A DNA stretch of 64,000 nt. It comes from Macrostomum lignano. Its lineage: Eukaryota. The notes under the pieces were generated by a model, which was given only the letters and a program-made list of their open reading frames with translations, was not told the origin of the DNA and did not search any database. Made by a program: the position numbers and the translations under genes. The DNA lies in assembly GCA_002269645.1 (NCBI GenBank), contig NIVC01003229.1, forward strand, positions 45,790-109,789. Direction: 5' to 3'. Positions 27,910 to 55,599 of the stretch are shown here, piece by piece (the stretch's first letter is position 1; the number at the start of each line of letters is the position of its first letter).

Positions 27910-28251
27910 TCAAAACGTGCAGTCTCGCGGCATACTATTAAAAATGGGGCATCCTATCAGGCCTCTACTAGCTGTTTTCTTTAAACAGTGTATGCAAATA
28001 AAATGGGCATGATTACAATATTGAAACGTGCGCCATGAATCACAGTAGGCGCATTGCGTTAAGCTACTTCTACAGAGCGGGCAATTCTGCCAGAGTTCAA
28101 TATAGTGCGCATCGCTTAAGCAAGCTCCGCATATGCGATGTCCGTTTTCACAAATAATTGGTAGCTTGACAGCCAAGTTATCAGTAAAACATATCGGGCA
28201 TTCGTAAAGTTTCTGTAGTTGGGGCGCCTGTTTGGACAGTGCGTTGCCCAT
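27910..28251 (-). CDS. Intronless 113-aa C3HC4 RING protein with a second Cys/His cluster and N-terminal MGxxxS
   Basis: CPIC..CENGHRICGAC..CPLC, then CAYC..CNHAHFICIHC..GCP; starts MGNALS. Confidence 0.7.
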   Translation of the reverse strand: MGNALSKQAPQLQKLYECPICFTDNLAVKLPIICENGHRICGACLSDAHYIELWQNCPLCRSSLTQCAYCDSWRTFQYCNHAHFICIHCLKKTASRGLIGCPIFNSMPRDCTF

Positions 28252-28549
28252 TGCCGTCGTCGCTTGAAGTTTGAAGTCGCTCAGATTAGTCGCATTTTAC
28301 GACAAGCTTGCGAAGCTGTAGTGCTATTCTTTATCCCGGTCACTACACGGGGTTGGTCTCGAAACTTAACGCGGTCGTATGTTGTAACCATGCTGCTGGC
28401 TCTTCGTGCTTCGTTGTGACGTGGCGGTTCGTCGATCGCGTGCGATCGGCGTTGTCCAGTGACGGTAGAAACGCTGTCGTGTCGGTGCCGATCTTCTTCA
28501 GCCGATGAATGTGCACGTAGAATTGGTGCTGATGAGGATCTTGCACATT

Positions 28550-30190: not shown

Positions 30191-30220
30191 AAGGCAGCAG
30201 GGGGGATCCGTCCTCCATCA

Positions 30221-32752: not shown

Positions 32753-34360
32753 TCAGATATATGTAGTAAGCAATGCGAATATTTCCATTCCACCAGGGCC
32801 ACCACACGTTTCGTTTTCAAGGCCTTTCTTGCATCGCGTGTTACAGTACTCCTTAGACGCTGCCATTCCTTGCTGTATTTTATTGCCACAGTAGCACTCG
32901 TCGCCATTTGCTAGACCAAAATATTTGTATGACCATTGCAAGCAGCCTTCAGCACACATTCTTTGATTCATAGCCGCAAAATGTATATCAAACATGAAGT
33001 CCAAGACCGTTTCGTCTTTTTGAAACAAATAACATCCCTTTGACGGCGCTAAAAAACACAAAAGTGTGAGTCTGTACATTTTTGACAGCTAATAAATCAA
33101 ACGGCTACGGGTTAAAGAAACGGCTGTTCACTTACCCGGCACTATTACAGCCGTAGTAGGTGGCACTTCGAAGATACTCATACCAAAACTGCCAACACAA
33201 GTTTCCCGGATGTTTCCCGGACACCTGCGATCGCACCTTGATGGCAAAATCGGCTTTGAACTGATGTAGTTTCCGCAATAGCATTTTGTTTTTTGTACTC
33301 CAAAATATTGTTTGTTAATGTCTCGACATGCCCAAAGGCATGTACGCAGAAACATGTTGGAGTCCGTTTTGACTTTTTTTAGTAGAGCACTTTTATGGTC
33401 AAAATGCAAAAAACAGCCCTGATAATATGTTCCTGAAATTTTTTGGTAAAAATTCAATTATTGTTTGTAGGATTATGTACGCCAGTGCATTATAAATACA
33501 TGTGAATACAATTTCTAAGGCCACCAAGTCACAACACATCTGCAAGCAGATCAACTTGGTCGCATATCAAGGTAGTGTTAGTCGCTGCGAAGCCCAGGGA
33601 AGTGGTCGCTGTGGCGCTAACTATTGATTCGAATAGTCAGGCATATGCATTTTGGTTTTGCAGCTTCAGTATGAAACAAATTATGGTCCTCAGAAGGGCA
33701 AGACGCATTATGAAGGTAAGGCACTCTCGCAAAGGCATGAGGAAGATAAGGGTCAACACGAGAGAGAAGCTGAAGAAGCGCACAAATACACAACAGACTC
33801 AACAGGACAAGGAAGTCAGCGAGTCGAGTCAAAATGTCACCTGGCATAACGGACCAAATTAAGATGCATTCTATCTAAGTAGCTGGAGAATGCTTGCTTT
33901 ATAAATGCGTACACCTATTTAACGTCTAGCCTATTTAGCCTAGCCGTTTATATGTTTTGGGGTTAATAGATACTTACCTGTTATATCTGAAATTGAGATA
34001 TGGGAACTCGGTTATTGTTGGTAAAATAGCACCGCAAATACTCAGAATTAAAATACGAAATCAGTGAAATACATCCTAATTGTAAAGCCAAAATTAAATA
34101 AATGCGTAAATTAATTTTTACTTTCAGCTAGTAATTAAAAATCTATGAATAAATATCAATTGGCATTAGAATGACGCGTAGGCACTTACTGACGTAGCCT
34201 GAAAGTAAAGCCCGGTATAATTTTTAATGCAAATACACATAAGATAATACTAATACTATTTCAATTAAATTCATACTAATCCATCCCGAGTATAGAGGCT
34301 TACCTCCGAAGACGCTTGAAACCGCAACAAGAGGAACAGAGCAAGAGTTGCAAACTGCAT
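32753..34360 (-). CDS. Secreted double-WSC protein (WSC-3); exons 34360-34304, 34198-34190, 33986-33978, 33432-33136, 33048-32753
   Basis: Paralog of WSC-2 with the same exon structure; intact 297-bp WSC exon; exon 1 is 57 bp versus 58 bp in WSC-2 (single-base loss); TATAAAA at 34461-34455. Confidence 0.85.
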
Positions 34361-34513
34361 GATTGCTTCAATTGCTTTTTTGCTTCGAGAGTTTGTTTTA
34401 CTAGACTCCTGTATTTGTCGAAAACTTGATTCGGCAGCCTTGAGCCTCTCTTTCTTTTATAGAGCTCGAATGCAAATTCTTAAAATAAATTTGTGCCACG
34501 TTGCAAATTCCTA

Positions 34514-35514
34514 AGTAGAATGCATGAGGGGGCTTCTGGGACAAAATTTTTCACCTCCTCCATAATCCACCTAAATCCATCCATATTATCCCTGACAGAA
34601 TCAGAAAAAAGGGGGGTCGCACTCGCTCACAAAACATCCTCCATAATCCACCTAAATCCATCCATATTATCCCTGACAGAATCAGAAATAAAGGGGGTCG
34701 CACTTGCTCCGAAAACTTCGAACATAATCCTATTAAATCGATCCATTATTATCCTGACCGCTTCCGGACATTTGCCCTCCGGCACTTCCCTCCGGCACTT
34801 GCCCTCCGGCACTTCCCCTCGGCGGCGTTTGCCCTCCGGACATTTGCCCTCCGGGACATTTCCCCTCCGGACATTTGCCCTCCGGACATTTCCCCTCGGG
34901 GACATTTGCCCTCGGGGACATTTGCCCTCCGGACATTTGCCCTCCGGACATTTCCCCTCCGCACATTTGCCCTCTGCAAATTTACCCCCTCGCACATTAC
35001 TCACCTCACCTCCTCCTGTACCCACCCGTCGTTCCTCCAGCACCAACCTCATCCTCCCGCCTCTTGCATCCATCGGGTTCTTCTCCAGCCAACAACTCAT
35101 CCTTTTCTAGTAAGCAATATATACCCGCGCCCTACCCTATCCCCAGCCTTACCTGTACTTTTTCCAGAGGGGAAATGTCCGGAGGGCAAATGTCCGGAGG
35201 GCAAATGTCCGAGGGCAAATGTCCCCGAGGGCAAATGTCCGGAGGGCAAATGTCCGGAGGGCAAATGTCCCCGAGGGCAAATGTCCTCGAGGGCAAATGT
35301 CCGGAGGGGAAATGCCGGAGGGCAAATGTCCGGAGGGCAAATGCCGGAGGGCAAATGTCCGGTAGCCATCCCTGACAGAATCAGAGCATAACAGATGTCC
35401 ACTAACACCTGTTATGCTCACTGACACCGACATCCACCCATAACATTTCTAAAACAATCAGAAAATAATCTGCATTCTTCTCCCCACATTCAATTCGCAA
35501 CGCGAAACCAGATC
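34514..35514 (+). repeat. Left TIR of the Polinton, interrupted by a 610-bp insertion
   Basis: 34514-34757 plus 35368-35514 match the reverse complement of 50472-50855 with about 7 substitutions. Confidence 0.95.
34758..35367. mobile_element. Foldback-like MITE with arrays of GGACATTTGCCCTCC in opposite orientations
   Basis: Absent from the right TIR; flanked by ATCCTGA / ATCCCTGA (probable 8-bp TSD with a 1-nt loss). Confidence 0.8.
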
Positions 35515-35580
35515 CCTAAAACTTTAAATCATCAGCGCAGGGTCCTTACCCATTGAAAAAAATCTAATTTTTCTCTAAAA

Positions 35581-35816
35581 ATGTTTGCAGTTGTCTCTCC
35601 AGGTTCTTATTACAAAGCGGACGAGCCTAATTACAAGAGTAAGTACAATGCAAGAAGGAATGCAGTGAGTACATGATAAAATATTGGCCCAACGTTGATA
35701 TCAATGTCCCTAATATTAATCTAGCTCTCCAAAGACACTGGTTTCATAAGTATGGAGTAGTCATTAACGATTACGACAGCTACTATAACTTTGCAGAAAT
35801 CATTAAGCAATTGTGA
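35581..35816 (+). CDS. Small Polinton ORF (~78 aa if one -1 frameshift is corrected), function unknown
   Basis: TAAAAATG start; MFAVVSPGSYYKADEPNYKSKY / KKECSEYMIKYWPNV...FAEIIKQL*. Confidence 0.45.
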
Positions 35817-35820
35817 TTTC

Positions 35821-36684
35821 TTACATTCTCTCAATGATCAACGTCAATACAAACTCTTCCCCATTAAAATCAACGCCCATCCCATCTTCAGTCTCAAACT
35901 GTAGCACAATCTCGTGAATCTCTTTATTACTCAATACAACTCTTTTCACTGGATTTGGTTTCTCTACCACCATCTGTCCTCCAGCAACAGAGTTGGAGAT
36001 GTTGTACAAAATATTCGTTCGCTTTCCCTTAAATACCCAATCAAGACTGAGATTGCTTCTGATTAGAATATTCAAACCCTTTACAATGTCTGCAATATTG
36101 GGTGCTAAGAACAAACCGCTTACACTTTCCCGGACCATTCTAACAGTCCCCGATGCTTGAGTGGCGGTCTGCGCCGCGGATTCTGCCTTATAAACTTTCT
36201 TCTCGAATCCTAGTTCCCTATACCAAGTGTCATCTTTAAACTCAACCTCCGCATTTTTGTGAACTTGCATGACCACTCTCATTACAGTGAGATCATAGGT
36301 TAGTTTGACAGGGAACAGTTTCTTCTCTGGCTTACTCGCATCAGGTGTCTCAAAATGGCCTCTCTTAGTAAAGACATTTTCTAGAAAGTTATTGTAGGTA
36401 TCCACACTTTGCGTGCTCACATGGAATACCACAGGGTCTTCTGCTGCACCTTTCCATTTGTAATAAAACTTATTATTTGCTGCCATCACATTGGGAACGT
36501 TTGACCAACCAGTGAAGTCGTTAAGATAGACATGGTAATTAGCACCTGGATCCAGGCGAATCGCCTGCTCTAATTTTTCATTAAATATCCCGTTTGAGTC
36601 ATTAATTCGCCCGGTTACTGTAATAGGAATGCTCTCCTTAGAGTGTGAAACAATGTTGTTTAGTCTTTCGGCTATAGCTTCCAT
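35821..36684 (-). CDS. Minor capsid protein (penton-like), intact
   Basis: ~287 aa; IRLDPGANYHVYL..WSNVPNVMAANNKFYY resembles Polinton penton N-termini; adjacent to MCP. Confidence 0.75.
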   Translation of the reverse strand: MEAIAERLNNIVSHSKESIPITVTGRINDSNGIFNEKLEQAIRLDPGANYHVYLNDFTGWSNVPNVMAANNKFYYKWKGAAEDPVVFHVSTQSVDTYNNFLENVFTKRGHFETPDASKPEKKLFPVKLTYDLTVMRVVMQVHKNAEVEFKDDTWYRELGFEKKVYKAESAAQTATQASGTVRMVRESVSGLFLAPNIADIVKGLNILIRSNLSLDWVFKGKRTNILYNISNSVAGGQMVVEKPNPVKRVVLSNKEIHEIVLQFETEDGMGVDFNGEEFVLTLIIERM

Positions 36685-36707
36685 TTTTTTCACCCACAAA
36701 AAAATAT

Positions 36708-37994
36708 TTAAACTTTACTGGATGAATTGTTGATCATGTTAAGCTTCACCTTCCTCTCAAATGCATAGATAATGTACAGGTCCACGGGTGTTGCGGTAGT
36801 CCTTTCAATGTTAGTCACGATATTCACAGGGCTGTTATCAGTAGGCATTTGTCTGGCAGACACATCAGCGCCAAACATCGGATATAGAGTTCCATATTGA
36901 AGAGCAGTGATAGCAATTCCATTGTTCTCTTTCACAGCCAAGTCGACCAACTCGCTGTAAAATTTGCTAATCTTGTTCTGACTGAAATCTCCATTTTGTG
37001 GCAGTGCAGGGTAAAGATTATCACTGATTTCATGCTGAATGGACCGCACGTCTCCATGCATGTAGCGTATGATGCTATTTGGGTTTCTCATATTAATAAT
37101 GATATACCTTGGATTGCTGCATGATCCCTCTTTAATGCAGATATTTGTTCTAGTTTCGTTTCGCTCATCTCGACACATGTAGGCTGTGTATGCAACATCA
37201 ATGTCCTTCTCTATTGCCTTAAGATAATCCGCTTTTAGTGCAGTCTTTGGCTCAATGACTTCCAAATACAGCTCGATTCCGGTTAGCTTCACCTCCATCC
37301 TTGTGTGGTCCGCCCCAGTCCACAACACTCTACTGCGATCATCTCTAGTCATCCTAAATGTGTAGCTAAAGTTACTAGTCAGTCGATTAAATGTATTACA
37401 GAATCCACTCATGAATCTCAATGGTACAAATACATCAACAGACCGATACTGCGGGTTCTTAGCAGCATCATCTGCACCTTGCAATGCATAGTTGTATCTC
37501 TTCTTCCTATTTTTATAGCCACTGTCATTGGTGTCTCCTTCTTTTTCATCTGCGATAAAACCCGCACCACTTCCCAACTGAATAAAATCAGGATTCTCGA
37601 TCAAACAATGAGCGTCATAGACAATTCCAAAGTTGGCGATTCGCTCCAACTCAGTGCTCCCATTCGATACACTAAACTCCTTGAACATGTACGCCCAAAA
37701 GTTACTGATCAGAGCCACATCCGCATCATGCTTGTCAACGTTAGCACGAGCCGCATCCGCACCACCTTTTGTCTTGAATTGAAATGTCATATGGAAGCCG
37801 CTCTTAAGACTGTGCACACTAACCAGAGACGAACATCCATTGTATGTAAATGTCAGTGTTTGACCTGGACCCAAATTAGTTTCATTCTGGTTCTCGTGAC
37901 TCGGAACTCTAACTTGTGTCGCTTTGATTGTGCTATCATCACTCAAAATAGGCTTGTTAATTTTGTAGAAAACTGGTGTCAGTGGGTCGTTCAT
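36708..37994 (-). CDS. Major capsid protein (double jelly-roll type), intact 428 aa
   Basis: Size, beta-rich sequence and Polinton MCP-like N-terminus (ILSDDSTI..NL...LTF); located next to the penton gene. Confidence 0.82.
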   Translation of the reverse strand: MNDPLTPVFYKINKPILSDDSTIKATQVRVPSHENQNETNLGPGQTLTFTYNGCSSLVSVHSLKSGFHMTFQFKTKGGADAARANVDKHDADVALISNFWAYMFKEFSVSNGSTELERIANFGIVYDAHCLIENPDFIQLGSGAGFIADEKEGDTNDSGYKNRKKRYNYALQGADDAAKNPQYRSVDVFVPLRFMSGFCNTFNRLTSNFSYTFRMTRDDRSRVLWTGADHTRMEVKLTGIELYLEVIEPKTALKADYLKAIEKDIDVAYTAYMCRDERNETRTNICIKEGSCSNPRYIIINMRNPNSIIRYMHGDVRSIQHEISDNLYPALPQNGDFSQNKISKFYSELVDLAVKENNGIAITALQYGTLYPMFGADVSARQMPTDNSPVNIVTNIERTTATPVDLYIIYAFERKVKLNMINNSSSKV

Positions 37995-38024
37995 TTTTTA
38001 ACTAAAAATAAAATAAAATAAGAA

Positions 38025-39239
38025 ATGAAGCGGAAAAGTTCATATCATATCTCTGAACTAGAAAAGCTGGCGCAAGCAGAGAAACGAGTTACCGGACTAA
38101 TCAACAAAGAACAACAATCTTACAATGAATTCGTCCAAGCAGCCACCGAATTTCACAAACCTGGATACACAGAAGCGAAGAAAAACATCGACACTGTGAA
38201 GGAAACAATTGATGATATTCAAGAGAGCCAGTTGCAAAACACATTGGGTAAAATCCCATCTTCACCGGGACAACCACAGGCTCAGCAACCAGGACAACCA
38301 GTGCAGATGAAAGTGACGGATAACTTTTTTGGCCCCGTAACGGATGATGGAAAATATATATTTGGAATTAGCGCCTGGCGAAAAAATATCACCGGGGAAC
38401 CGGCGGATTACAACATTGAAGTGACGAAGGAAACTATTTCAATCAATAAAGGCGCAGAAACTAAACGAATCCCCTTCACTCAAAGTTTACTCGACTACAT
38501 GACTAAAAATCAGGAAAAAATATCCGAGAAGCAATTAAAGAATTATAGAGATCTGGTTACCTTCGCTTTAGAGAGGGACATAGACATTCTCAAGAACAAC
38601 GGTGTTTTGAAAGTTTTACATGAAAACAGGATTGACTTGAACAGGTTTAGAAAATACAAATACTTTAAACAATGGTTTGGTTTGCCGGATCAAGAAGAGG
38701 TCATAAGACAACAACCACAACAACCACAGCCACAACAGCAGCAACCACAACAGCAGCAACCAAAACAACAACTACAACAACCACAACAGCAGCAACCACA
38801 AACACAACCACAACCACAACAACCTCCACCGCCACAGCAACAAATCACACCCGAACAAGTACTAGAAGCGCTTGAAAAAGCAGGGCCAAATGAGATTTCC
38901 CAGTACAAAGATACAAACCCTGATACTTGGCGACAATTAGAGCGGCTCTCCCCAGAACGAATGAAGCGAATCAATGACAGAGTATTCACACCTCAACAAA
39001 GACAAGCGCCACATGACAGTTCCTCCTCTGACCAATCATTCGAATCACCTCCAAGCTCTTCCGGAAAAGGCATGCCTGAATTCTACAAGCGGTTAGCTGT
39101 TCTTCTAGGAGCGGCAAAGACCGGAATGAAAGACGAGAATAGAAAAGAATTTGTCAACATCCTGGACAAAATGCTTGAGAGAAAATATATCGATAAAAGA
39201 GCAAGAGAACTTTTGCTTTCACGGTTTAACAAAAAATAA
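38025..39239 (+). CDS. 404-aa Polinton protein with poly-Q/P linker and C-terminal helical motif
   Basis: Intact ORF; C-terminal RLAVLLGAAKTG..EFVNILDKML resembles a motif I recall from Polinton accessory proteins. Confidence 0.7.
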   Translation: MKRKSSYHISELEKLAQAEKRVTGLINKEQQSYNEFVQAATEFHKPGYTEAKKNIDTVKETIDDIQESQLQNTLGKIPSSPGQPQAQQPGQPVQMKVTDNFFGPVTDDGKYIFGISAWRKNITGEPADYNIEVTKETISINKGAETKRIPFTQSLLDYMTKNQEKISEKQLKNYRDLVTFALERDIDILKNNGVLKVLHENRIDLNRFRKYKYFKQWFGLPDQEEVIRQQPQQPQPQQQQPQQQQPKQQLQQPQQQQPQTQPQPQQPPPPQQQITPEQVLEALEKAGPNEISQYKDTNPDTWRQLERLSPERMKRINDRVFTPQQRQAPHDSSSSDQSFESPPSSSGKGMPEFYKRLAVLLGAAKTGMKDENRKEFVNILDKMLERKYIDKRARELLLSRFNKK

Positions 39240-39255
39240 ATTTCTATTTAAAAAG

Positions 39256-39621
39256 ATGCCAATTATTTTCGAAAAAGACATTGACAAATACTACGACAAA
39301 GAGGAACTTAATCTCATTAAACGCGGATCTGGACTTTTCCCTGCAGGCCACTATCCAAGAAAAGAACGCTCTGGGAATGGCCTTGCTGATTTGATCGCTC
39401 AAGGGGCCAAGATTTTTAAGGTCATTGGAGAGAACAAAGAGAACATCAAGAACGTTGCCGAAGCGGCTGGCAGTGTAGCCACAGCAGCCAAAAAGATTAA
39501 AGATACGTAAAACCTAAACGATATTCAACCCCTTGCACCGAGTGCAGATAGTGTCGATCCAGCCATCTACGCAAAGATGAGAGCTGAATATAAGAAAGGA
39601 GGCGGTTTTAAATTTGACTAA
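39256..39621 (+). CDS. Small amphipathic virion-core/membrane-active-like protein (in-frame TAA at ~39508)
   Basis: GSG, GNG and GGG motifs; GLADLIAQGAKIFKVIG amphipathic helix; a second partial copy at 40316-40594. Confidence 0.6.
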
Positions 39622-39776
39622 TTTGGTGCACCCTGACGGTAAAAGAGGTGTGAGGGTGTAGGACTAGTCGGATGTAGGACTAGTCGAAAAAAGACACACA
39701 CATACACATCCCGAAAAAAAGACACACGCGTCTTAAATACACAAGTTTAAAAAGAAAAAGTTTTTTTACATAAAAA

Positions 39777-41467
39777 ATGGACTTCACAAACGACTTTCAT
39801 CCCCACTGGACACGCAATCAGATAAAATTTGCTCACAACGAGATAATTCCAGGGCACTTCCGATGCATTGTTGTTGGCTCATCTGGGTCAGGGAAAACCT
39901 TCAGAGTTTTTAACATGCTCCTCAGACCTGGATTCCTCGATTATGACACACTACATATCTATTCACCCACTCTGTATCAAGATGAGTATAAAATGCTAGT
40001 AGCGGGCCTACAGAACAAACTCAACAAGGAAGATATTATTCAATGTTTTAGACATCAAAAAGACCTCAACAGCAACCCGGAAGTTGTAGCCACTGAATAC
40101 GCAAAGCACATCCCAGACAATGAAAAATGGCAAAATATTAAAGTTTTCACTTATGGAGATCCACAGATAGATCCTAAAACTAAACTCTTACCTCAACCTG
40201 ATGAACTAGAAAAGGGGAGAAAGCACCTGATTGTCTTTGATGACTGCATGACCGGTCCCAGAAACAGATAGAAAATTATTTCACCCGGGGTAGACACAAT
40301 AACTGCAATGTTATTAATCTCATTAAACGCGGATCTGGACTTTTCCCTGCAGGCCACTATCCAAGAAAAGAACGCTCTGGTGGCCTTGATTTGATCGCTG
40401 GGGCCAAGATTTTTAAGGTCATTGGAGAGAACAAAGAGAACATCAAGAACGTTGCCGAAGCGGCTGGCAGTGTAGCCACAGCAGCCAAAAAGATTAAAGA
40501 TAATTATGCACCGAGTGCAGATAGTGTCGATCCAGCCATCTACGCAAAGATGAGAGCTGAATATAAGAAAGGAGGCGGTTTTAAATTTGACTAATTTGGT
40601 GCACCCTGACGGTAAAAGAGGTGTGAGGGTGTAGGACTAGTCGGATGTAGGACTAGTCGACAGGACACACGCGTCTTAAATACACAAGTTTAAAAAGAAA
40701 AAGTTTTTTTACATGGACTTCACAAACGACTTTCATATAATCAGAGTCATTGCACTTCCGATGCATTGTTGTTGGCTCATCTGGGTCAGGGAAAACCTTC
40801 AGAGTTTTTAACATGCTCCTCAGACCTGGATTCCTCGATTATGACACACTACATATCTATTCACCCACTCTGTATCAAGATGAGTATAAAATGCTAGTAG
40901 CGGGCCTACAGAACAAACTCAACAAGGAAGATATTATTCAATGTTTTAGACATCAAAAGACCTCAACAGCAACCCGGAAGTTGTAGCCACTGAATACGCA
41001 AAGCACATCCCAGACAATGAAAAATGGCAAAATATTAAAGTTTTCACTTATGGAGATCCACAGATAGATCCTAAAACTAAACTCTTACCTCAACCTGATG
41101 AACTAGAAAAGGGGAGAAAGCACCTGATTGATGACTGCATGACCGGTCCCAGAAACAGATAGAAAATTATTTCACCCGGGGTAGACACAATAACTGCAAT
41201 GTTATTTACATTGCCCAAAACTGGTTTGAACTGCCAAATAAAACAATTAGAGGTAACTGTAATTTGATTCTCCTTTTCCCAACCATACCACAGGATCGAC
41301 TGAAACGATTTTATAATGAGGTCATTGCCCCAGCTCACATTACATATCCAGCTAAGAACTCTAACAGAACAATATCACAGGAGGAATTTGTTAACATATG
41401 CTATGAAAAGTGGAACCAACCCTATCAGTTTGTCATGATTAATAAGGAGAAAAGAATTTTACTTTAA
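39777..41467 (+). CDS. A32/FtsK-like packaging ATPase, split by an internal tandem duplication and frameshifts
   Basis: Walker A GSSGSGKT, Walker B LIVFDD, then TRGRHNNCNVIYIAQ..LP..IRGN. Confidence 0.92.
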
Positions 41468-41483
41468 TTTTTCATTTAAAAAA

Positions 41484-42260
41484 ATGTCTATTAATTTTGG
41501 TGAGTCAACTACAGGCAACAGCACTCTCACAACTTCCTTCCTTGACAAGCGCTACATTAACACTGATGAAGAGATCCCAGAGATCAAACTGAATAAAAAC
41601 AGACTGAAAGCCCTAGAGCGCTCCATGCACCAGTTGCAAATAAACATGGAAGATCTCAGGCTTAAAGTAGCTAGGCAGAAGTTTGAAAGTGATAAGCTTT
41701 ATGTGCCGTTGTTAAACGCAACTAATGAACTAAGGTCAGAAATAACTTCGATAGTCTCGCTAATCAACGGCTTAAGATCGACAGTTAATCTTCTGGGAAA
41801 TTCCACTGATAGACGGATGCGTATTCTTGAAGGAGGAGTTTTCACAAACACAGCTAAAGTAAATAATTTAGAAGAGTTCATGAACCAGTCAACAGCGTTG
41901 CATGATAGAATTAGAGAAAACGTCGCAACCAACACAGGTAAAGTGAGGAATTTAGAAGAGTTCATGACTCAGTCAACAGCGTTGCATGATCGAATCAAAG
42001 AAAGACTTGAAGCATTAAAGAGAAAGGATGTATCACACAGTAGCTATCTAAACGGAATGTATAGCGCTTGGGGTAAAATAATAAGGAGGCTTGATCGTCT
42101 GGAGAGAACACTCAATCTTCGTGATATTGCTATTGATGAAGCAGAATCTACTGCTCGTCCGGTCATGTCTATTAATGAAATTATCGAATTTCATCAAAAT
42201 CAAATCAAATCAAAAGAAAACAGGTCTTTTTTCAAAACAATAGATCTTCAAACCGGATAG
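41484..42260 (+). CDS. 258-aa coiled-coil protein (fibre/spike candidate)
   Basis: Heptad-rich; internal 25-aa repeat NTxKVxNLEEFMxQSTALHDRI. Confidence 0.6.
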   Translation: MSINFGESTTGNSTLTTSFLDKRYINTDEEIPEIKLNKNRLKALERSMHQLQINMEDLRLKVARQKFESDKLYVPLLNATNELRSEITSIVSLINGLRSTVNLLGNSTDRRMRILEGGVFTNTAKVNNLEEFMNQSTALHDRIRENVATNTGKVRNLEEFMTQSTALHDRIKERLEALKRKDVSHSSYLNGMYSAWGKIIRRLDRLERTLNLRDIAIDEAESTARPVMSINEIIEFHQNQIKSKENRSFFKTIDLQTG

Positions 42261-42294
42261 TTTTGTAATTTTTTTATTTTTTCTAGGGAAAAAA

Positions 42295-42995
42295 ACCCAA
42301 CAAAATTCTCTATACGATCAGTCTCAATACGCTGAACCTAAAATACCGACAGCACCAAACCCAATGGACCGAATTCGAACACACAAAGCCTGAATGCACC
42401 GAATCTGAATGCACCTCAATATGAGCAACAAAAACTCTACCCCGTCATTTCATGTAACTCTCAACAGTTTCGACTGGTGGAGATTCAAAAAATGCGAGAT
42501 GATCTTGAAAAAAATATTTTCCACAACACAAAGAAAATTAAGCGCTATGACAGCCACTGTAAATTTTTCGACTACAGCAATATGATTCTAGGATCTGTGT
42601 CTGTTCTATCTGGATCTGCTGCAGCTGTCTCAACGTTGCCAGTCATCACAGCCCCAATCGCAATTCCGCTCGGCTCTGTGGGTGCTGCATGTGGACTTAT
42701 TTCAGCAATTACTGGAGCATTAGCGCGAAACAGGCGAAAAAAACTAAAGCAGCTACAGGAGAAGCAAGTAAAAGAGAAAGGGGTGCACACTTCAATCATA
42801 GGGTACATTTCAAGGGCAATCGAGGATAAGTTCATTTCAGAGGATGAGTTCAAAACCATTCAGGATCTTTATGAACAATCAATTCGAATGAACTTGAACA
42901 TGGTCGGTACTGATGACATGAGTCAGCTGAGAAATGAACTCGAGAAAGTTCTTCAACATTATGCGGAAAGAAAGTCGGCAAGAAATGCACAATGA
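42295..42995 (+). CDS. Polinton PX-like hydrophobic membrane protein; 5' end disrupted
   Basis: LYP..FRL..I..., two hydrophobic segments, basic stretch, ISRAIEDKFISEDEF. Confidence 0.75.
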
Positions 42996-42999
42996 ACCC

Positions 43000-43407
43000 C
43001 TATGAAACACAGCCTAGAATAATTTCCTTGTAGGTCTTTCGTGTTTTGGTCATTGCATACAAAACAGTCATGCACAGCTCACCGCAAATATCACTGCTAA
43101 GACCTTGGAGAATAAAGTCTGAGCGATAAATTTTTTTATTATTTTTTCCCTTCATATAATTTCTTAGCTCTTCTGGTACTGCCGTCCCATAGCTATCGAA
43201 GTAATAACACTTGTGCTTGCGATCGGGATCAATCACCCAGCAAACCCAATGAGATCCTGGCTTATCAGTGCTGTCAAAGTTCATGATGCCGCATTCTTTT
43301 CTTAGAGGAAAATCAGGCAGAGTGTCCCTCATAAATACGAGTATTCCTCTAAAGTTTGGGATTTCCAGTTCGTTAGCCAAATCTTCAAGAAAGTTATTTG
43401 TTGTCAT
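43000..43407 (-). CDS. Adenain/Ulp1-like cysteine maturation protease, intact
   Basis: GSHWV, YYFDSYG, Q and ICG catalytic motifs. Confidence 0.93.
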   Translation of the reverse strand: MTTNNFLEDLANELEIPNFRGILVFMRDTLPDFPLRKECGIMNFDSTDKPGSHWVCWVIDPDRKHKCYYFDSYGTAVPEELRNYMKGKNNKKIYRSDFILQGLSSDICGELCMTVLYAMTKTRKTYKEIILGCVS

Positions 43408-43480
43408 TTTTTATGAGGTTTATTCAACTTTCTCTTAAACCTAAACCCAATCTCAACCTCCTAAACCCAACCTCCTAAGC

Positions 43481-46268
43481 CTAATCTCCACCTCCTAAAC
43501 CTAATCTCCAGTGCCCGAACGGCAGACTGTTGATATTGTCATCAAAAATGAATCTCTTGTTATCTGCACCTGACAATCCAATCTTCTTTTGCTGAATTGT
43601 GTGAATAATATGGTTTTTAGATTGTAGCTTTGAGAACTCATGTGATGTCTTTTTGTTACAATTCAAGGCGTCTCTGTATTCAGCTTCATTAAGTTCCTTC
43701 CTAACCACACGTTTCGGAATTCCCTTTGATTTTTTAATTGGGTCTGACGACTCACATTTTACAAAATAGGACTTTGCTCTCAACCCAATGAATTCAGTGA
43801 TTATGTCACCAGCAATCTCGTCCTTCATTTTCCCAATCACTTTCTTGTTAGTAGCGTCAAACACTTGATCGCCATTCTGTGTCCTGAAAGATCATCATAC
43901 TCAGACAAGTCAAACAAATCTTTTTGCTGCAGCATGTCCTGATAAATGTCTTCTGTTTGAATGTCCATAATGAAACTGTCTGTGTCAGTGTACAAAGTTT
44001 CATTTTATCCTTGTACTGCTGCTTCATGCCATAGAAGAACTGGTACATCAGACGTTTTGATTCGTCGAGAACAGTGACACCTGTATAGATCGGCTTGCGC
44101 AGCGTCACCTTGGTTTTGTAAAATATGATCACACCTAAGTAGCTATTAAAGATATGGAGTTCTTTGAATGTTGGCTTTGACATATTTGCCTGAATAACAG
44201 CAGGCTCTGATGAGGTAACAAGTTTCAGGTTTGTTCTTTTCCGCTCATTCTCAAGAGTCTTGCCATAGACGGAGTTGTTGGCTAACTTAAAGAGGTTCTT
44301 GTCAAAGTCGTTGGTTGCTTTGGTCCTAAACTGGGTGTTCTTATCAATGTAGGGTTTCATCCACGCTTCCTCTGTAAATGTAAGAGCCCTGTGAACTTTG
44401 GTGACCCTGCAACCCAGTGAGATAAAATACTGAAGCAGTTTGTAATGGATTTTGTAACGTGTCTTGTTGTTTAGATTCTGTGTTAGTTTCTCTGTATGTT
44501 CTTTTTCTGTTCCTGACAGGTGCCAAGTTCCATTATTATCATTGGGAGTTTCGATTATTTTCGGGCACTTAATGTTCTCTGGGAAGGGTGGAAAGTCAGA
44601 GAAATAGTCGTGAAGCTCTGTGGAATGTAAACATCAACCTCATAAATGGCAGCCAATGAAAAGTCCCACTTTAGTTCTGATGAGGGTAGCCATCGAAAAT
44701 CTCTAACTGGAAGATCTTGACTCATCGCCCACCCGTAGAGATTATTAGCGTCCAAGTAAGTAATGTAGTTTGAGGGTTGCTCCTTATTGTAAGATTCAAT
44801 GTAGGGATTGTTTGCTTTTGCATACCTGTTAACGCAAATTGAGATCCCCCTCGCTTTGACGATTCGACAAAATTGTACATGTCAATGTCTGTAAGAAGTT
44901 CAATGTACCAATCTGGATCTTGATCCCATTTCATTTTAAGCAAAGATTCCCAGCTAGTGGCGGGCAGAGACACATAATGTGCTGGATCGAGGCCATATGC
45001 TGTGTACCAGGTGTCTCTGAAGGTTTCAAACACATCGGCCAGCAGAAACACATCTGTGTAGAGGTAAAGCAGGTGATACTGGAAAAAGTTTTGACAATTA
45101 AAGTAATTATAGACATGCTTCGCGTGCTCATAGTCTTTGTCAGAGATTCCAGAGTCTGTTAGCTTTGAAAAGAACTTTTCTTGTGGTGGTAAACCATCTT
45201 CAAATACGTGATACCCAGTAATATTTTCATAGGGGTAGAAGCCTTTCTTTCTTAAAAGTTTAAATGATTCATCACTGTTGTTAATTTGACTTGAAAATAT
45301 CTTTGTATATGTACATTGTTCATCTTTTAGATTCTTGCTTAGTTCGTCTAGACTGGCAGCTAGAAATTGATATGAATCCTTCAGTCTTATTTTACCTGTA
45401 ATTGAATTATCCTGTTTAATATCAACACACTTAAACTTCTCCTTGTTCTCTGCGATGCAATCAAGGTGTATGTCTGGAATCATGCCGATTTTTTCAACTA
45501 TTAAATGCATGTCATAGTTCTTTGCGTTGTGACAAAATATCGTTAGATCATGAATGTTCGATTTTAGCTTTAAATTACAGGTGTTATGCGCTGCGCCTCT
45601 AAATTTCCCAGTAAAGTGGCAGTGGTCCCTAACGGTGGGGTTTTTTAAATCAGTGCAAGTTAAATGTTTCCTGCAGATGTGGCAATGAGTTGCTGATAGG
45701 AAATTGCTTTCATCCTCCTCATACATACTTATTGGAACAGGTTGAAGGGTGCTAATCACTTTTTGCAGCTCTAACATTCTGGCAATAAACTGCTCCACAC
45801 ACTGCTCTCCAAAGAAATAATTATACTCAACAAGTCCTTTTGTAGTAATAAAGGCATATGCTACTGAGTTGGGGACATGTTTTTGAGTTTGAGTTTGTTT
45901 TTTGAGTATGAGTTTGTTTTTGAGTCTCTGGCACGATTGAGCATTCGAAATCAGCATATACAACAAATGGGAGCTTCTCCATCTTGTGATAGTTCTTAAA
46001 ACGGAGATACTTCTCTTCAGCTGAAGGAAGAGAGCAGTTTGTCGGGTGATCCTCGCATGATAATTCATGGATTTTTTATAGGCGCATACTGGTTGGATTC
46101 TAATTGTTTGATGATTTCCAACTGTTTTTCATAGCTTCCCAGGTGACCGGGGTCGGTGTTAAACTTTTGTTTACATGCTTCTCTTAGTAAATTACTTTTG
46201 TCTTGAAATGAGACGCCTTTTGAAAAATGTTTGTTGACTAAATCTTTTGCTGGATTACCTTTTGGCAT
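43481..46268 (-). CDS. polB: Protein-primed family B DNA polymerase, several frameshifts
   Basis: VVYADFE (ExoI), HNAKNYD (ExoII), KGFYPY, YTDVFLLADVFETFR, DANNLYGWAM, KLANNSVYGK, YTDTDS, KSY; endonuclease-VII-like CHIC..DHCH..AHNTCN. Confidence 0.95.
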
Positions 46269-46392
46269 TTTTTTCTCTAAAATAAACAAAATTTTTGAGG
46301 GTGACCACCCTGATAGAAAAGTTGAACTGTTTCTACATCCTATAAGTAGCGCTAGGTTTATGAAGCTGGATAAAGTGGGGTTTTAAACCTCA

Positions 46393-46839
46393 TCACATCC
46401 GCATTATTGTAAACCCAGCATTGTGTAGTGTCATGATTGCTTTGACAATGTCAGACTTGCTTACAGAATTTTCATGCTCACAATCATCAAAATCCGGGCA
46501 GCCCTCTCCTGCCTTAATTGTTATACCTTTATCTCTTGCAATCTTTTGCAATTCCAGCTGGTGGGCTCTATCATTACCAGCTTTAACAGCAGTTGCTACA
46601 CCTCCAGCTACACCACCTGCGGCACTTACAGCGCCTGCAATGATCGGAATAAGAGCTGCTAATGGTAGGATTCCTCCTGACTTTTCATCTGTGATGCTGT
46701 GTCTTTGCTCATTACACTGAACTATTTGCTGCACGGGATCGACTTTTACTTTGGCACCTTTAATTGATATAAGACCTGGTTTCTTTGATTCAATGATTTT
46801 ATTGAGTTTATTGAGGGTTCTAGTTTCAATCTTTGTCAT
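46393..46839 (-). CDS. 148-aa adenovirus pX-like core/membrane protein
   Basis: SGGILPLAALIPIIAGAVSAAGGVA resembles the adenovirus pX C-terminus (GGILPLLIPLIAAAIGAVPGIASVA, recalled from memory). Confidence 0.7.
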   Translation of the reverse strand: MTKIETRTLNKLNKIIESKKPGLISIKGAKVKVDPVQQIVQCNEQRHSITDEKSGGILPLAALIPIIAGAVSAAGGVAGGVATAVKAGNDRAHQLELQKIARDKGITIKAGEGCPDFDDCEHENSVSKSDIVKAIMTLHNAGFTIMRM

Positions 46840-46855
46840 TTTTTATTTTAATATT

Positions 46856-47851
46856 TTAATTAATTTCCGTGTCAGCTGGTATCATTAGGAGTTCAGCTCT
46901 AGTGAATGACCGCGTGGGGGATTTAGGGTTAAAGGCCTGAGATAAAAAGTAATAGTCACCGGAGTCGGAGGTAAAATGTCTGTCTATTTTATGTACATCA
47001 AGGCTGAAGTATGGATCTGTAGCTCTTCTTTTGGTGTCCTTCTCTAGCTCTCCAGGTAGATATAAAAAGCGTAGAAACTCAGAGTTTGTCAGTATGTATG
47101 GTGATTCAACTCCTGGAAGCTTAGGGTAGTTCGAGGTGTCTGTTCTATGAGATGACTTAAGTTCGACAGTGTCTTGTTTAATTGCATGGGATGGTTTCAA
47201 TCCAGTCATGCGTGTGACTTCATTGTTCAGTTGCTCTATAACAGTGGGGAGCCGGTCTGTCCACTTGGTATAGTACTGACCACCTTTTAGTTTCAGCTCT
47301 TCAGCTGTCTGCTTTGTGAATAGTCTCTTGGCTAGAGTTAGATTGAATCTTTCCACAAAAGCCTGGTCTCTGTGGAGCTCAGTTCTGCCATAGCGAATTT
47401 TTGCGTCATACTTATGTAGAAGTGATTTCACTGCCCCAAAGAATTCTTTACCCGGGTCCGTCATAAAGATTTGGGGGTATGTGAGCGGAGAGTTTTTATA
47501 AATATCTTGGAGGGCGGCTGCAACTGCTTCTGACTTCTTCGTCTTAAGCGGTCTCGCTTCCTTATATCTGGAGGCAACGTCTGTAATTGTAAGAGCATAC
47601 TTGTAGCCTGAGTCGTTGGGGAGAAACAAAAGATCTGCTTGGTGCGCTTCATTAGGTTTATAGATGCTAAAGTGAGGTCTTGTAAATTTTACTGGTGGGA
47701 AATAGACTTGAAAGAGAGCCTGCTTAGAGAGCCATTTTTCTACTGTAGCTTTTGGTTCCTTACTCAGCTCCATGAGTTTACTAACGGCATTTTTGCCTAC
47801 AAAGAATCCTTTGTCGCTGTAGTAGAGTTTTTTAAGTTTCTGATCTGTCAT
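46856..47851 (-). CDS. int: Retroviral-type DDE integrase, intact 331 aa
   Basis: HQADL, MTDPGKEF, VERFN. Confidence 0.95.
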   Translation of the reverse strand: MTDQKLKKLYYSDKGFFVGKNAVSKLMELSKEPKATVEKWLSKQALFQVYFPPVKFTRPHFSIYKPNEAHQADLLFLPNDSGYKYALTITDVASRYKEARPLKTKKSEAVAAALQDIYKNSPLTYPQIFMTDPGKEFFGAVKSLLHKYDAKIRYGRTELHRDQAFVERFNLTLAKRLFTKQTAEELKLKGGQYYTKWTDRLPTVIEQLNNEVTRMTGLKPSHAIKQDTVELKSSHRTDTSNYPKLPGVESPYILTNSEFLRFLYLPGELEKDTKRRATDPYFSLDVHKIDRHFTSDSGDYYFLSQAFNPKSPTRSFTRAELLMIPADTEIN

Positions 47852-47881
47852 TTATTTAAAAAGAAAATTTTAAATAAAATA

Positions 47882-48370
47882 ATGCAGCGCTCTGGTGGTA
47901 AAATAGATTCACATGGACTGATAGAAAAGCTTCCTCATCCAAACAAAGGCTGGACACTTCCCGGCTATAAATATTGCGGGCCTTTGAATCCACTTGAAAT
48001 ACAGCTAGATAAAAACAATAATCCACATCCTGGGCATGAGCCTGTGAACGAGCTAGACTCTGTCTGCATGTGGCACGACGTTAAGTATAGAGATTTTCCT
48101 GAGGAGAAGAATCGTTGGGACAAAGAAATGCTCAGGAGACTCGACAATATAGGGGCTTCAAGCGGATTTCGTGAGTCGATCGCTCGGAAGCTAGTTAAAG
48201 CTGTTATTTTTAGTAAGACAAAACTGGGGTTGGGGGTGTACGCCGAGGGCGGGTGTTTGGGGAGAGAGGGCGGGTGCACGGGGTGCTCGGGAACAGGGTT
48301 TATTTTGTGTGCTCCAAACGAGGAACTAGGAAGACTGCTGAAAGATATGGGGATAGAGAGAGACGCTTGA
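47882..48370 (+). CDS. Parvovirus VP1u-type phospholipase A2 protein (162 aa)
   Basis: LPGYKYCGPLN calcium-loop motif and NELDSVCMWHDVKY catalytic HDxxY. Confidence 0.88.
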   Translation: MQRSGGKIDSHGLIEKLPHPNKGWTLPGYKYCGPLNPLEIQLDKNNNPHPGHEPVNELDSVCMWHDVKYRDFPEEKNRWDKEMLRRLDNIGASSGFRESIARKLVKAVIFSKTKLGLGVYAEGGCLGREGGCTGCSGTGFILCAPNEELGRLLKDMGIERDA

Positions 48371-48576
48371 GTCGGGAAGGATTTAAAAAAAAGACTCATC
48401 GATATTAAATTGTAATAAGTGAAGAGCTTGGTTAAATATTTTATTTTATGTTAATAAACAAAAAAAACATTAACACAAAGTTGTTCAAAGTTACATATAA
48501 TAATTTGCTTAGTTAATTCATTCAGTTATTATTTCATTGAAAACTACTATGAGTAGGCTTAGCTTCGAAAAAAGTT

Positions 48577-49260
48577 CTAAACACTTTCCTGGATCTCCAG
48601 GATTTTTTTCCAGGATTTTTTTTCCAGGATTTTATCCAGGATTTTATCAATGTAAGCCGCTCATAGTGGTTTTCAGGGTAAAATAACAGGATTATTTTTT
48701 TAATTTTAATAAGTGAAGAGCATGGTTAAATATTTTATTTTATGTTAATAAACAAAAAAAAACATTAATACAAAGTTGTTCAAAGTTACTTATAATAATT
48801 TGCTTAGTTAATTCATCCAGTTATTATTACATTGAAAACACTACGAGTAGGCTTAGCTTCGAAAAAAATTCTAAACACTTTCCTGGATCTCTAGGATTTT
48901 TTTCCAGGATTTTTTTCCAGGATTTTATCAATGTAAACTACTCATAGTAGTCCTCTAAACACTTTCCTGGATCTCCAGGATTTTTTTCCAGGATTTTTTT
49001 CCAGGATTTTATCAATGTAAGCTACTAATAGTAGTTTTCTAAACACTTTCCTGGATCTCCAGGATTTTTTCCAGGATTTTTTTCCAGGATTTTATCAATG
49101 TAAACTACTCATAGTAGTCTTCTAACACTTTCCTGGATCTCCAGGATTTTTTTCCAGGATTTTTTCCAGGATTTTATCAATGTAAACTACTCATAGTAGT
49201 CCTCTAAACACTTTCCTGGATCTCCAGGATTTTTTTCCAGGATTTTATCAATGTGAACTA
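48577..49260. repeat. Palindrome-containing ~83-bp repeat array inside the Polinton
   Basis: ACTTTCCTGGATCTCCAGGA at ~48583, 48877, 48961, 49045, 49127, 49210; plus a ~300-bp duplication (48408.. vs 48709..). Confidence 0.93.
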
Positions 49261-49328
49261 GTTTTCAAGGTAAAATAACAGGATGAATTTTTTTACGTTA
49301 CAATTTGTTTAGTTTATTCATCCTTGGC

Positions 49329-50207
49329 TTAGTCGACTGATGCAGTCGCCAACTCCATCGTAGTCTCCTCCAGCAAGGCGTCCTCGTTCTCTCCTTCAAA
49401 CACGATGGCAATATCAGTCTCCAACTTGCAGCAGAAGTTGTCGTCCTGCTCCGCCTCTTTCTCGATCGCTCTTTTGTATGTGAGCAGCGACTCGAACGAG
49501 TGCCCGGAGAAGACTAAATTTGGGTACTTCCTGATGAACCCGTGGAAGGTGTACAGTCGTTCGGCGAACTTGGGGTCGATGTCCAGTCGCTTGGCGGCTC
49601 CTTCTGTTGAGAGACCTTGGGTCTTAATAGACGCGAGGATCTCCGCCTGCTTTTTTCTCGCCAGACAGGTGAGCACCTCCAAGTCCCCAATGAAGGACTC
49701 TAAACTGGCGAACTGCGTCAACATTCCGTCCACATCCGTTTGAACGTCGGCCAAGCATAACGCTTTAGCGTTGTAGAAACTAAAAAAAGCAATAACACGG
49801 AATCATAATGTAAAATATGTTTCGCTTTCTAGAAATCATAAAAACCTTAAGTAATTTAAATCACGTTTTAACCAAGTCAAGGATTGCAAATAATAGAATA
49901 AGCAAAAAAAAACTTACCGCGTCTTGATGTCGATCTGCTCATTTTTAATTTTTTTGAGACTCTCTTTTAGACGCGCTATGAAGCGTGCCTCTCGGCGCTC
50001 CTTGTCATTACTGGAGCGCTTGGCCTCGTCGGATTTCTCTTTTTTCAACGATTCACGATCGATTTTTTGCAAGCATTCAAACAGTGAGGCCTGCTCCTCT
50101 TCGTTAATGGCGGTAATCGCGACAGCCGTGCTTGCGATGTCTTTGCTACTGATACTTTTAATTGTATCGATAATTTTTGTCGGCTGCTGTTTCACCTTCG
50201 AATTCAT
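49329..50207 (-). CDS. Spliced Polinton gene, 246 aa (exons 50207-49918 and 49779-49329), function unknown
   Basis: TATATAAA 50290-50283; CG|GTAAGT donor and TTTTTTAG|T acceptor join the two ORFs in frame (KTR-FYN). Confidence 0.8.
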
Positions 50208-50303
50208 GACAGAAGAGAGCAAGGTGAGGCTAGGCGAGGCAGGGCGAGTCGAGGCGGGGCGAGGTGCGGTGTGAATTGGCTGTTTATATACCCGGCAGTT
50301 GCA

Positions 50304-50360
50304 TGTAGTTGCCAACTACAAGGTAGTACCTTGTAGTTGGCAACTACAAGGTACTACCTT
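50304..50360. promoter_or_regulatory. Two overlapping perfect palindromes between the TATA box and the right TIR
   Basis: 22-bp arms around 50326 and 20-bp arms around 50340. Confidence 0.75.
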
Positions 50361-50471
50361 ATAACTTCAGCCAATGGAGAGAATGGAAAGCACATGTGGA
50401 GCGCATGGCATGGGTTTTATTTTTACGTAGAACTTACGTAAACAAGGTACTACCTTGTAGTTGGCAACTAC

Positions 50472-50855
50472 GATCTGATTTCGCGTTGCGAATTGAATGT
50501 GGGGAGAAGAATGCAGATTATTTTCTGATTGTTTTAGAAATGTCATGGGTGGATGTCGGTGTCAATGAGCATAACAGGTGTTAGTGGACATCTGTTATGC
50601 TCTGATTCTGTCAGGGATAATAATGGATGGATTTAATAGAATTATGTTCGAAGTTTTCGGAGCAAGTTCGACCCCTTTTATTTCTGATTCTGTCAGGGAT
50701 AATATGGATGGATTTAGGTGGATTATGGAGGATGTTTTGTGAGCGAGTGCGACCCCCCTTTTTTCTGATTCTGTCAGGGATAATATGGATGGATTTAGGT
50801 GGATTATGGAGGAGGTGAAAAATTTTGTCCCAGAAGCCCCCTCATGCCTTCTACT
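50472..50855 (-). repeat. Right TIR of the Polinton (384 bp)
   Basis: Reverse complement of the left TIR without the MITE. Confidence 0.96.
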
Positions 50856-51179
50856 TTCCTACATTAACTACCACGTAGAAATTGAATTTTAGAATGTGAG
50901 TGGCTAAAAGTTTTCGTTCAACTTAAAGTTTTTCAACTCATTTTTATTTTAAATTTCAGGAAGTTGAAACTCGGATTCAATTACTAGAACTCTGTTTTAA
51001 GCGTTTTTAAAATAATTAAGATCTTCTTCAGAAATAAATAAAATGCAAAAAATTCAGAAAAAAATGAAAACCAAGTATTGAAAGTAACTACGAATGGTGT
51101 TTCAAAAGTATTGCCGCATTTCTTTGCACTACCTTTCATGATCATAGATTGAAACAAAGGGAATAATCACTGAATAACG

Positions 51180-54790: not shown

Positions 54791-55599
54791 TGGGGAACAG
54801 GTATATACAAAATCGAATAACTCTTACTGCAGCGGATCATCTTGTAGTTTGTAGACGTCTGGGTCTTGTAGTGTGTAGCGCTGTCTGACTTGGCTGAGCG
54901 GTGGCGGCGGCCGGTTCCGGTGAACCGCTGTTGTTTCTTGGAGTCCTTAACTTTATCTGTGGGTCGACCAAAACGAGAGCGAATTAGAATTCTTGACGGT
55001 CCTCGAGCTCGGAATTAACAATAGAACGTATGAACAATTGACTTCTCTGAATATCTGTAATAGGTCCTCCTGAAGGGCGTCTTCTTTGTTACGTCCGAAA
55101 CGTAACGGACAACTCAATTCAAATCAATAAATCCTTTAGGAATGTATCCTAGGAAACAAGGAGGCCTTTCTCAAATGTCTCGACAATAAGTGGCTCTCGT
55201 AGACTGAATTAATCAACTTGCTAGTGCTATAGGAAAGAACTAAATCAGGTAACGCTTACCAATCTATCCGGCTTTCTTCTTGGTTAACGTATTTCAAAGT
55301 CTTCATTAAGACCGCTCCGAGTCTGAATTTTTGACTCGGATTTTCGCTTATATTTATAGTAAAATTTTGGTGAAAAACTGGTTTAAAATCGGTTATTTAC
55401 TTAGCTCGTAGGTAACGTAAGTTTGATCATTACCATATATGGGATTAAGCAAATAAAACTCCAGAGAACCGGTTTCTTGATCAAATAAACGTTGATCCTA
55501 CGTAGGGCTCTGACTCACTTCTGTTTGCATATGCAACTAATTCTAAAAATAGATATTACTCATCATGACTCATTCTAAAAATGGATTGTTTAGAATTGT

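Follow-up and report, generated by a model that had tools for sequence, protein, structure and literature searches.

A young, high-copy Polinton family in Macrostomum lignano: one damaged integrated copy, its relatives and a variable cargo slot

Polintons or Mavericks (Polintoviricetes) are described as elements of 13–25 kb that combine terminal inverted repeats (TIRs) and target duplications of 5–8 bp with genes for a protein-primed DNA polymerase (pPolB), a retrovirus-like (rve) integrase, an ATPase, a protease, a double-jelly-roll (DJR) major capsid protein (MCP) and a penton (Jeong 2023; Krupovic 2014). According to Barreat and Katzourakis (2021) most copies are degraded and particles of animal Mavericks have not been observed. 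Two further groups are among the systems closest to the locus studied here. Alpha adintoviruses are reported to carry a PF03175-type PolB, adenain, integrase, FtsK-like ATPase, hexon, penton and a phospholipase A2 (PLA2) that is fused with pX as PLA2X (Starrett 2021, PMC8502044), and nematode Mavericks are reported to have, between TIR and integrase, a poorly conserved region of 2–5 kb whose intron-bearing genes, encoding WASP proteases or KRMA kinases, are exchanged between elements (Widen et al., 10.1101/2022.07.12.499685). For flatworms, 748 integrase-linked pPolB1 genes have been reported from 8 of 73 Platyhelminthes genomes (PMC10748475) and planarian Polintons are reported to be silenced by piRNA (PMC8532177); in corals, expression of all hallmark Polinton genes has been reported (PMC11131425). 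Here we analyse a stretch of 64,000 nucleotides from Macrostomum lignano (contig NIVC01003229.1, positions 45,790–109,789; hereafter the window) and the element that spans its positions 34514–50855 (16,342 bp), which an earlier note, made from the letters alone, had called a complete endogenous adintovirus-like genome. We read the element, with a probability of roughly 70%, as one integrated and damaged copy of a young Polinton family whose members would use protein priming to replicate as free linear DNA, recombine, insert with 6-bp duplications and be packaged in predicted DJR capsids.

The termini of the element read AGTAG...CTACT, and the hexamer TTCCTA abuts both of them as a 6-bp target duplication. 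The features of the ends are as follows.

34508..34513: left 6-bp target-site duplication; the hexamer is single at empty sites
34514..35514: left TIR (34514–34750 and 35368–35514), with 81-bp internal repeats, split by a miniature inverted-repeat transposable element (MITE)
34751..35367: MITE of 617 bp within the left TIR, from a separate dispersed family with inverted 15-bp arrays; present in the sister assembly too
50472..50855: right TIR, 384 bp, from alignment to the left repeat
50856..50861: right 6-bp target-site duplication, from sequence comparison

Aligned over 237 + 147 bp, the two TIRs have 8 mismatches (2.1%). A query of the source genome with the left junction returned the same insertion in a second contig (the sister assembly) and three homologous regions that match the flank only; at the two of these that were readable, the hexamer occurs once and continues directly into the window's right flank, as expected of empty sites. 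The element thus has the AG...CT-ended inverted repeats and the 6-bp target duplication by which Polintons are recognised, and the two termini, the duplication and the repeat divergence of about 2% that had been proposed from the letters were all recovered. The MITE had been overlooked. It entered after the element had integrated and is no part of the virus; its family has 40 scored matches at 92–99% over most of their length among 172 candidates in the source genome. We also observed that the MITE family bears an 8–9 bp duplication and has at least 40 near-full copies in that genome.

Between the repeats lie the following genes; model confidence is given as the predicted local distance difference test (pLDDT) and predicted template modelling (pTM) scores of AlphaFold2 (AF2).

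35821..36684, minus strand: penton (minor capsid protein), 287 amino acids (aa), open; AF2 pLDDT 74.5; Mavirus penton E 6e-10; VIA Z 12.5, root-mean-square deviation 8.0, 233 aligned
36708..37994, minus strand: DJR MCP, 428 aa, open; PF21738 E 2e-5; AF2 pLDDT 93, pTM 0.90
38025..39239, plus strand: ORF404, glutamine-rich, open; no supported name
39256..39621, plus strand: small basic 'core-like' gene (putative label), about 126 aa in other copies, broken near 39.5 kb
39777..41467, plus strand: A32-like packaging ATPase, broken in the window but 266 aa long in other copies; PF04665, over cut-off in an open copy
41484..42260, plus strand: coiled-coil protein with an 84-bp repeat, putative 'fibre', from sequence
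42230..42995, plus strand: coiled-coil protein, frameshifted in its 5' part, with a hydrophobic hairpin, from sequence
43000..43407, minus strand: adenain-like cysteine protease, 135 aa, His/Asp/Cys motifs, open; PF00770 over cut-off
43481..46268, minus strand: protein-primed PolB with an endonuclease-VII-like insert, frameshifted and without about 1.06 kb; PF03175 E 4e-10
46393..46839, minus strand: pX-like protein, 148 aa, open; PF05829 E 4e-7
46856..47851, minus strand: rve integrase, 331 aa, open; PF00665 E 2e-10, acidic motifs present
47882..48370, plus strand: parvovirus-type PLA2, 162 aa, open, unfused to pX; PF08398 E 3e-13

The element is a Polinton/Maverick with an Alpha-type PolB, and all Polinton-defining features that we tested are present, including, among the genes, a protein-primed PolB, an rve integrase, a DJR MCP, a single-jelly-roll penton, an A32/FtsK-like ATPase and an adenovirus-like protease. 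The MCP model, obtained from an 88-sequence input, matches the capsid proteins of Sputnik, SGIV (an iridovirus) and PBCV-1 with E of about 5e-17, and among its structure matches in BFVD are those to a MELD virus and to an adintovirus protein. The penton has no Pfam match; its model is of middling confidence (pTM 0.52), with the Mavirus penton and adenovirus penton bases as structural matches. The exonuclease and palm motifs of PolB were seen in an open natural frame, the gene being broken in the window copy, and a 42-bp in-frame variant of the integrase is common to four copies. Database comparison supported no name for ORF404, 'core' or either coiled-coil gene. With these results the adintovirus/Polinton identity, the full virion gene set and the gene order given in the earlier note stand; the MCP does model as a double jelly roll, the penton as Mavirus/adenovirus-like, and the frames of MCP, penton, protease, integrase, PLA2 and pX-like protein are open as it had stated, as is ORF404. 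Both coiled-coil genes, which it had listed as intact, proved not fully open, nor is the core gene, in a test that is soft in that the ends of the coiled-coil references vary. The labels 'fibre', 'core' and 'PX' found no database support, PX being the penton in the usage of Krupovic 2014.

By type the PolB belongs to PF03175 (Alpha, pPolB1-like), and it groups with animal Polintons, but differs from those described in being only 33–47% identical to its best matches. Its identity to the PolB of a Corynactis coral adintovirus is 34% over 938 aa, with putative OTU Cys and His motifs aligned; the putative OTU region, recognised by this motif alignment only and without a Pfam match, is deleted in the window copy. 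In a quick PolB tree of 35 rows the family sits on a long, unplaced branch. Relatives of the MCP are unnamed throughout (43–78%), those of MCP and penton at 55–78% being short unnamed contigs, and a scan with two peptide patterns found no MCP relatives in IMG/VR or JGI contigs. In contrast to the fused PLA2X of Alpha adintoviruses, PLA2 (47882–48370, plus strand) and pX (46393–46839, minus strand) are separate here and on opposite strands, and the MCP has no named close relative among them. Adenoviruses have in common with the family the penton fold, adenain, pX and a protein-primed linear genome with inverted repeats, whereas the integrase, the A32-type packaging ATPase and the germline location set it apart. 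Near the right end, adenoviruses also have a variable region of accessory genes, and their repeats are repaired by end pairing. Unlike nematode Mavericks, the family has RING-finger genes and a helical protein family as cargo, has no fusogen detected by Pfam, and shows 22 cassette types within one family and one genome. The supposition of an undescribed lineage therefore holds at the sequence level (PolB identity, long branch, unnamed MCP relatives), not for flatworm Polintons as such, which are already in print. We found no paper on this family or on Macrostomum Polintons in a search that covered part of the Starrett supplement, with Repbase and most subscription papers outside it. Architecture, high copy number, capsid selection, mosaicism and a cargo region have each already been described in other Polintons.

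The family is a real, young, large and high-copy one. An exact 23-nt terminus pattern occurs 329 times in the source genome (control 0), and therefore at least about 165 elements are present, short derivatives included, near the top of the range reported for vertebrate Polintons (median 8, maximum 287 copies; Barreat and Katzourakis 2021). There are 661 MCP candidates, and all 98 that were scored are 98–100% identical, 96 of them stop-free. Left flanks gave only 3 shared pairs among 47, and 13 of 15 other two-ended copies have a 6-bp duplication of their own, one mismatched. The sequences suggest a recent origin. In a census of 58 stretches, chosen by MCP or polB similarity and in some cases holding the same insertion twice, the penton was open as assembled in 42/52, the MCP in 49/51, the ATPase in 32/51, the protease in 31/52 and the integrase in 24/37; 12 of 46 copies had all four virion-module genes open. 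In some copies the polB frame runs on for more than 1,250 codons, with breaks confined to the vicinity of the start.

Several patterns point to selection on, and exchange among, these genes. Variants common to at least three copies have silent-to-replacement ratios of 71:16 in the integrase, 22:2 in core, 32:11 in the ATPase, 47:10 in the MCP and 40:24 in the penton, against a neutral expectation of about 1:3.4–4. Behind the same termini, four copies carry a divergent capsid module with 80–83% amino-acid identity to that of the window, and between the two modules dN/dS is 0.05–0.07 for MCP and penton; as judged from these ratios, the capsid genes are under purifying selection. There are also two ATPase alleles that are 87% identical and saturated at silent sites. 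How far two copies differ in one gene barely predicts how far they differ in another (Spearman -0.11 to 0.32, 21 pairs). Mosaicism and purifying selection have been described for Polintons generally (Barth et al., 10.64898/2026.10.13.758929; PMC8097293).

The repeats of one copy resemble each other more than those of different copies: left and right differ by a median of 1.5% in the first 200 bp, with 6 of 19 identical, as compared to 7.1% between copies, and repeat length ranges from about 250 to 1,124 bp (19 copies). Two palindromic copies, which came up from paired matches and not from a systematic count, have direct 6-bp duplications and unmirrored flanks. The left-left palindrome, present in two contigs, has arms of 4.7 kb that are 99.85% identical and lacks polB and integrase; the right-right palindrome has arms of 5.4 kb (99.2% identical) and lacks the capsid genes. 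Most simply, and with a parallel in adenoviruses, such copies would arise when replication of a free linear genome switches template and the product is integrated in trans; repair after integration is the alternative. We found no paper on palindromic Polintons, most subscription papers being outside the search. As a separate observation, the inner part of many right repeats holds a small conserved open reading frame (ORF) of about 90–146 aa, without a Pfam match (L074:5766-6203); it is directed inward from the extended repeat and is absent or partial in the window.

The window copy itself is damaged, and judging from its frames it cannot, as assembled, make PolB or the ATPase. Relative to other copies, polB lacks about 1.06 kb (1,056–1,066 bp) near 46.07 kb and has several frameshifts besides; among 40 scored matches only the window spans the deletion junction. 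Lost with this stretch are the region of the vOTU-like Cys/His motifs and a large share of the terminal-protein part (domain order after Krupovic 2024, PMC11161782). A second lesion affects the core and ATPase region.

39308..41206: tandem duplication (39308–40315 / 40314–41206), the second copy differing by deletions only; missing from the sister assembly

The damage to polB and the ATPase is thus not largely single-base loss, as had been thought, and the claim of a complete genome holds for the ends and the gene list but not for function. The lesions are private to copies, not common to all of them. The sister assembly of the same insertion has the MITE in common with the window, and its first 5.7 kb differ by 3 substitutions and 8 indels of 1–2 bp; it has neither the duplication nor the large deletion, its ATPase is open, its MCP and polB are broken, and its right half belongs to a different copy, making it the one proven chimera. 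Two other sister pairs gave 3 substitutions against 15 small indels and 10 against 12, a further comparison of sister assemblies gave 11 against 13, and frameshifts across copies are mostly private single-base losses, at roughly 1–2 per kb per copy in unselected genes. Because sister assemblies differ mainly by small indels and the window's duplication is absent from its sister, many gene breaks are likely assembly errors. A COX1 search of the source genome returned a single weak match interrupted by stops. In sequencing runs, the penton-MCP stretch was found in 20 of 24 listed, 19 from one organism and 1 from a second, with no RNA run on record among the holders. Contigs of two DNA-like and two possible-RNA runs covered all 30 bins of 41210–48400, mostly in unbroken forms; as the RNA status was guessed and rare alleles are dropped, they are no evidence of expression, nor do they argue against the lesions of the window.

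The cargo slot, which extends from PLA2 to the right repeat, holds two features in the window.

48405..49246: cargo-slot repeats, a 294-bp pair and an 84-bp array, from repeat analysis
49329..50207, minus strand: cargo gene of two exons (50207–49918, 49779–49329), a member of the helical protein family by a leave-one-out test

The intron has GT-AG ends in frame and an intronless homolog exists in another copy, which bears out the spliced gene proposed in the earlier note. Across 49 copies the slot has fewer than 500 unique bases in 11 and one of 22 mutually non-alignable cassettes in the other 38. Six encode RING fingers (three checked by Pfam), and a profile of the helical family, which includes the window's gene, was matched by 21 in the slot census. 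Its members have a median identity of 15% over the shared block, and leave-one-out recovered 10 of 12 aligned proteins above shuffles and failed for 2. Two queries gave 129 and 90 matches in the source genome; 29 of 60 loci examined adjoin the backbone of the Polinton family studied here, some at its left end, and of 10 others read over a wider stretch 7 have divergent PolB, integrase, ATPase or capsid genes nearby, whereas 3 have none. One cassette, 95.5% identical over 649 bp, sits between a 33–41% PolB and an unrelated capsid gene, and because of this setting the sequences suggest exchange of cassettes between Polinton families. The helical family has no match in Pfam, PHROGs, PDB sequences or phage records, and its Atlas matches are unnamed or mixed. 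A resemblance to DUF3102/helix-turn-helix proteins found no support, and we set it aside. A pairing of every cargo protein with a repeat array of its own, to which it would bind, is a weak proposal given that tandem repeats occur in 14 of 22 cassette representatives, those with RING genes included. Cargo genes may counter host silencing or regulate the element, a role drawn from the RING domain and the position, to which we give slightly worse than even odds. A PCIF1-like domain (PF12237, E 1e-26) is encoded by an ORF of 379 aa next to one cargo-family gene (L259:8371-9507); this ORF, flanked by a 350-bp direct repeat, is a possible cap-methyltransferase cargo.

Taken together, we propose the following cycle for the family. 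PolB, with its terminal-protein, vOTU-like, exonuclease and palm parts, would copy the genome from the ends, and the genomes likely replicate as free linear DNA and likely recombine with one another. Pairing of the terminal repeats during strand-displacement copying would homogenise and lengthen them, and the same pairing might sometimes yield palindromic defective genomes, to be inserted by the integrase of another genome. ATPase, protease, pX and PLA2 would fill, mature and release the particles, which we would expect to exist in a family known here from genes alone. The slot beside the right repeat would carry an exchangeable accessory gene for a RING ligase or a helical, probably nuclear, protein, and the window copy as assembled would need helper functions. 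A more far-reaching version, which we consider unlikely, has a still-replicating, freely recombining population with helpers, snap-back defective genomes integrated in trans, two interchangeable capsid modules, two ATPase alleles and more than 20 cargo alleles traded even with unrelated Polinton families of the same host; if it were true, these alleles (RING ligases and the helical family, often with their own repeat arrays) would mark the locus of an arms race, fought either with host silencing or among the elements themselves.

A number of points weigh against the proposed cycle. No particle, free DNA or sure RNA is among the evidence, the MCP sample was picked by similarity and is hence biased, 2 of the 15 other two-ended copies lack a duplication, and the cargo role is read only from a Pfam RING match and position. 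No polB is open from start to stop in the 44 copies covering it, and of 1,535 candidates the 45 that scored best showed no whole polB. Selection on the capsid genes reflects past rather than present use. In one alternative, the family would spread only inside cells as a self-synthesising transposon, its capsid genes being recent passengers of an ended infection and no particles being made now. The broken polB genes, the mobilisation of derivatives of 640–870 bp with duplications and without capsid genes, and the pattern scan that found no relatives in IMG/VR or JGI contigs favour such a history; we nonetheless judge it somewhat unlikely, as purifying selection on MCP and penton is strong, the virion module is fully open in 12/46 copies, and small indels outnumber substitutions between sister assemblies, so that many breaks are likely errors.

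The gene-to-gene mosaic is explained in part by chimeric assembly, since the sister of the window insertion switches copy in its right half and chimeras of this kind can mimic recombination. One could extend this to the mosaics, the many cassettes per backbone, the palindromes and the variable repeats alike, as mostly due to collapse or misjoining of near-identical 16-kb repeats, or to conversion or repair after integration, rather than to free replication. Beyond the proven chimera, the sister assembly lacks both the duplication and the 1.06-kb deletion of the window, and conversion between repeats could preserve a target duplication. Misjoining, however, cannot give rise to 22 cassettes that do not align with one another, or to alleles of 80% identity whose silent sites are saturated; the palindromes have direct unmirrored flanks, one of them in two contigs, and most copies have matching duplications at both ends, so we regard this as quite unlikely. 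Highly improbable, to our mind, is a host-kept antiviral or helper-dependent element that is reactivated only upon infection by a larger DNA virus, in the manner of endogenous virophages. The folds are closest to virophage capsid proteins, and such dependence is described for virophages and some polinton-like viruses (Barth et al., 10.64898/2026.10.13.758929), but the family encodes its own integrase and a PolB that groups with animal Polintons, its intron-bearing cargo points to the host nucleus, and a helper virus was neither seen nor sought.

Since its open capsid, penton, ATPase and protease genes number in the dozens, this young family is a concrete place to seek particles. Under the proposed cycle, its palindromic copies and homogenised repeats would be fossil traces of end-primed replication, and in its cargo slot an uncharacterised protein family is available in many natural alleles.

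Other elements were observed alongside these copies. Terminal-repeat-only derivatives of 640–870 bp with 6-bp duplications, one mismatched (loci L150, L151 and L152; contigs C32, C124 and C289), are non-autonomous offspring of the family. Nested or tandem partial copies lie within 20 kb of each other at L085-L086, L081-L082 and L065-L066, from self-integration or misassembly. The source genome also holds other divergent Polinton families with PolB 24–49% identical, some with the helical cargo family (L252-L255, L265-L269, L261). In the window, which seems to be mostly mobile DNA, the segments 51678–53198, 61334–63197, 25583–26601, 28950–30291 and 55594–57209 are presumably coding fragments of long-terminal-repeat retrotransposons or long interspersed nuclear elements. 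In the host flank we take 33128–33457 (minus strand) to be a cysteine-rich exon resembling a WSC domain and 27910–28296 (minus strand) to be a RING-like ORF. Long tandem arrays occupy 1063–2245 (15-bp units), 3941–5296 (28 bp), 9577–9930 (18 bp) and 23122–23743 (34 bp).

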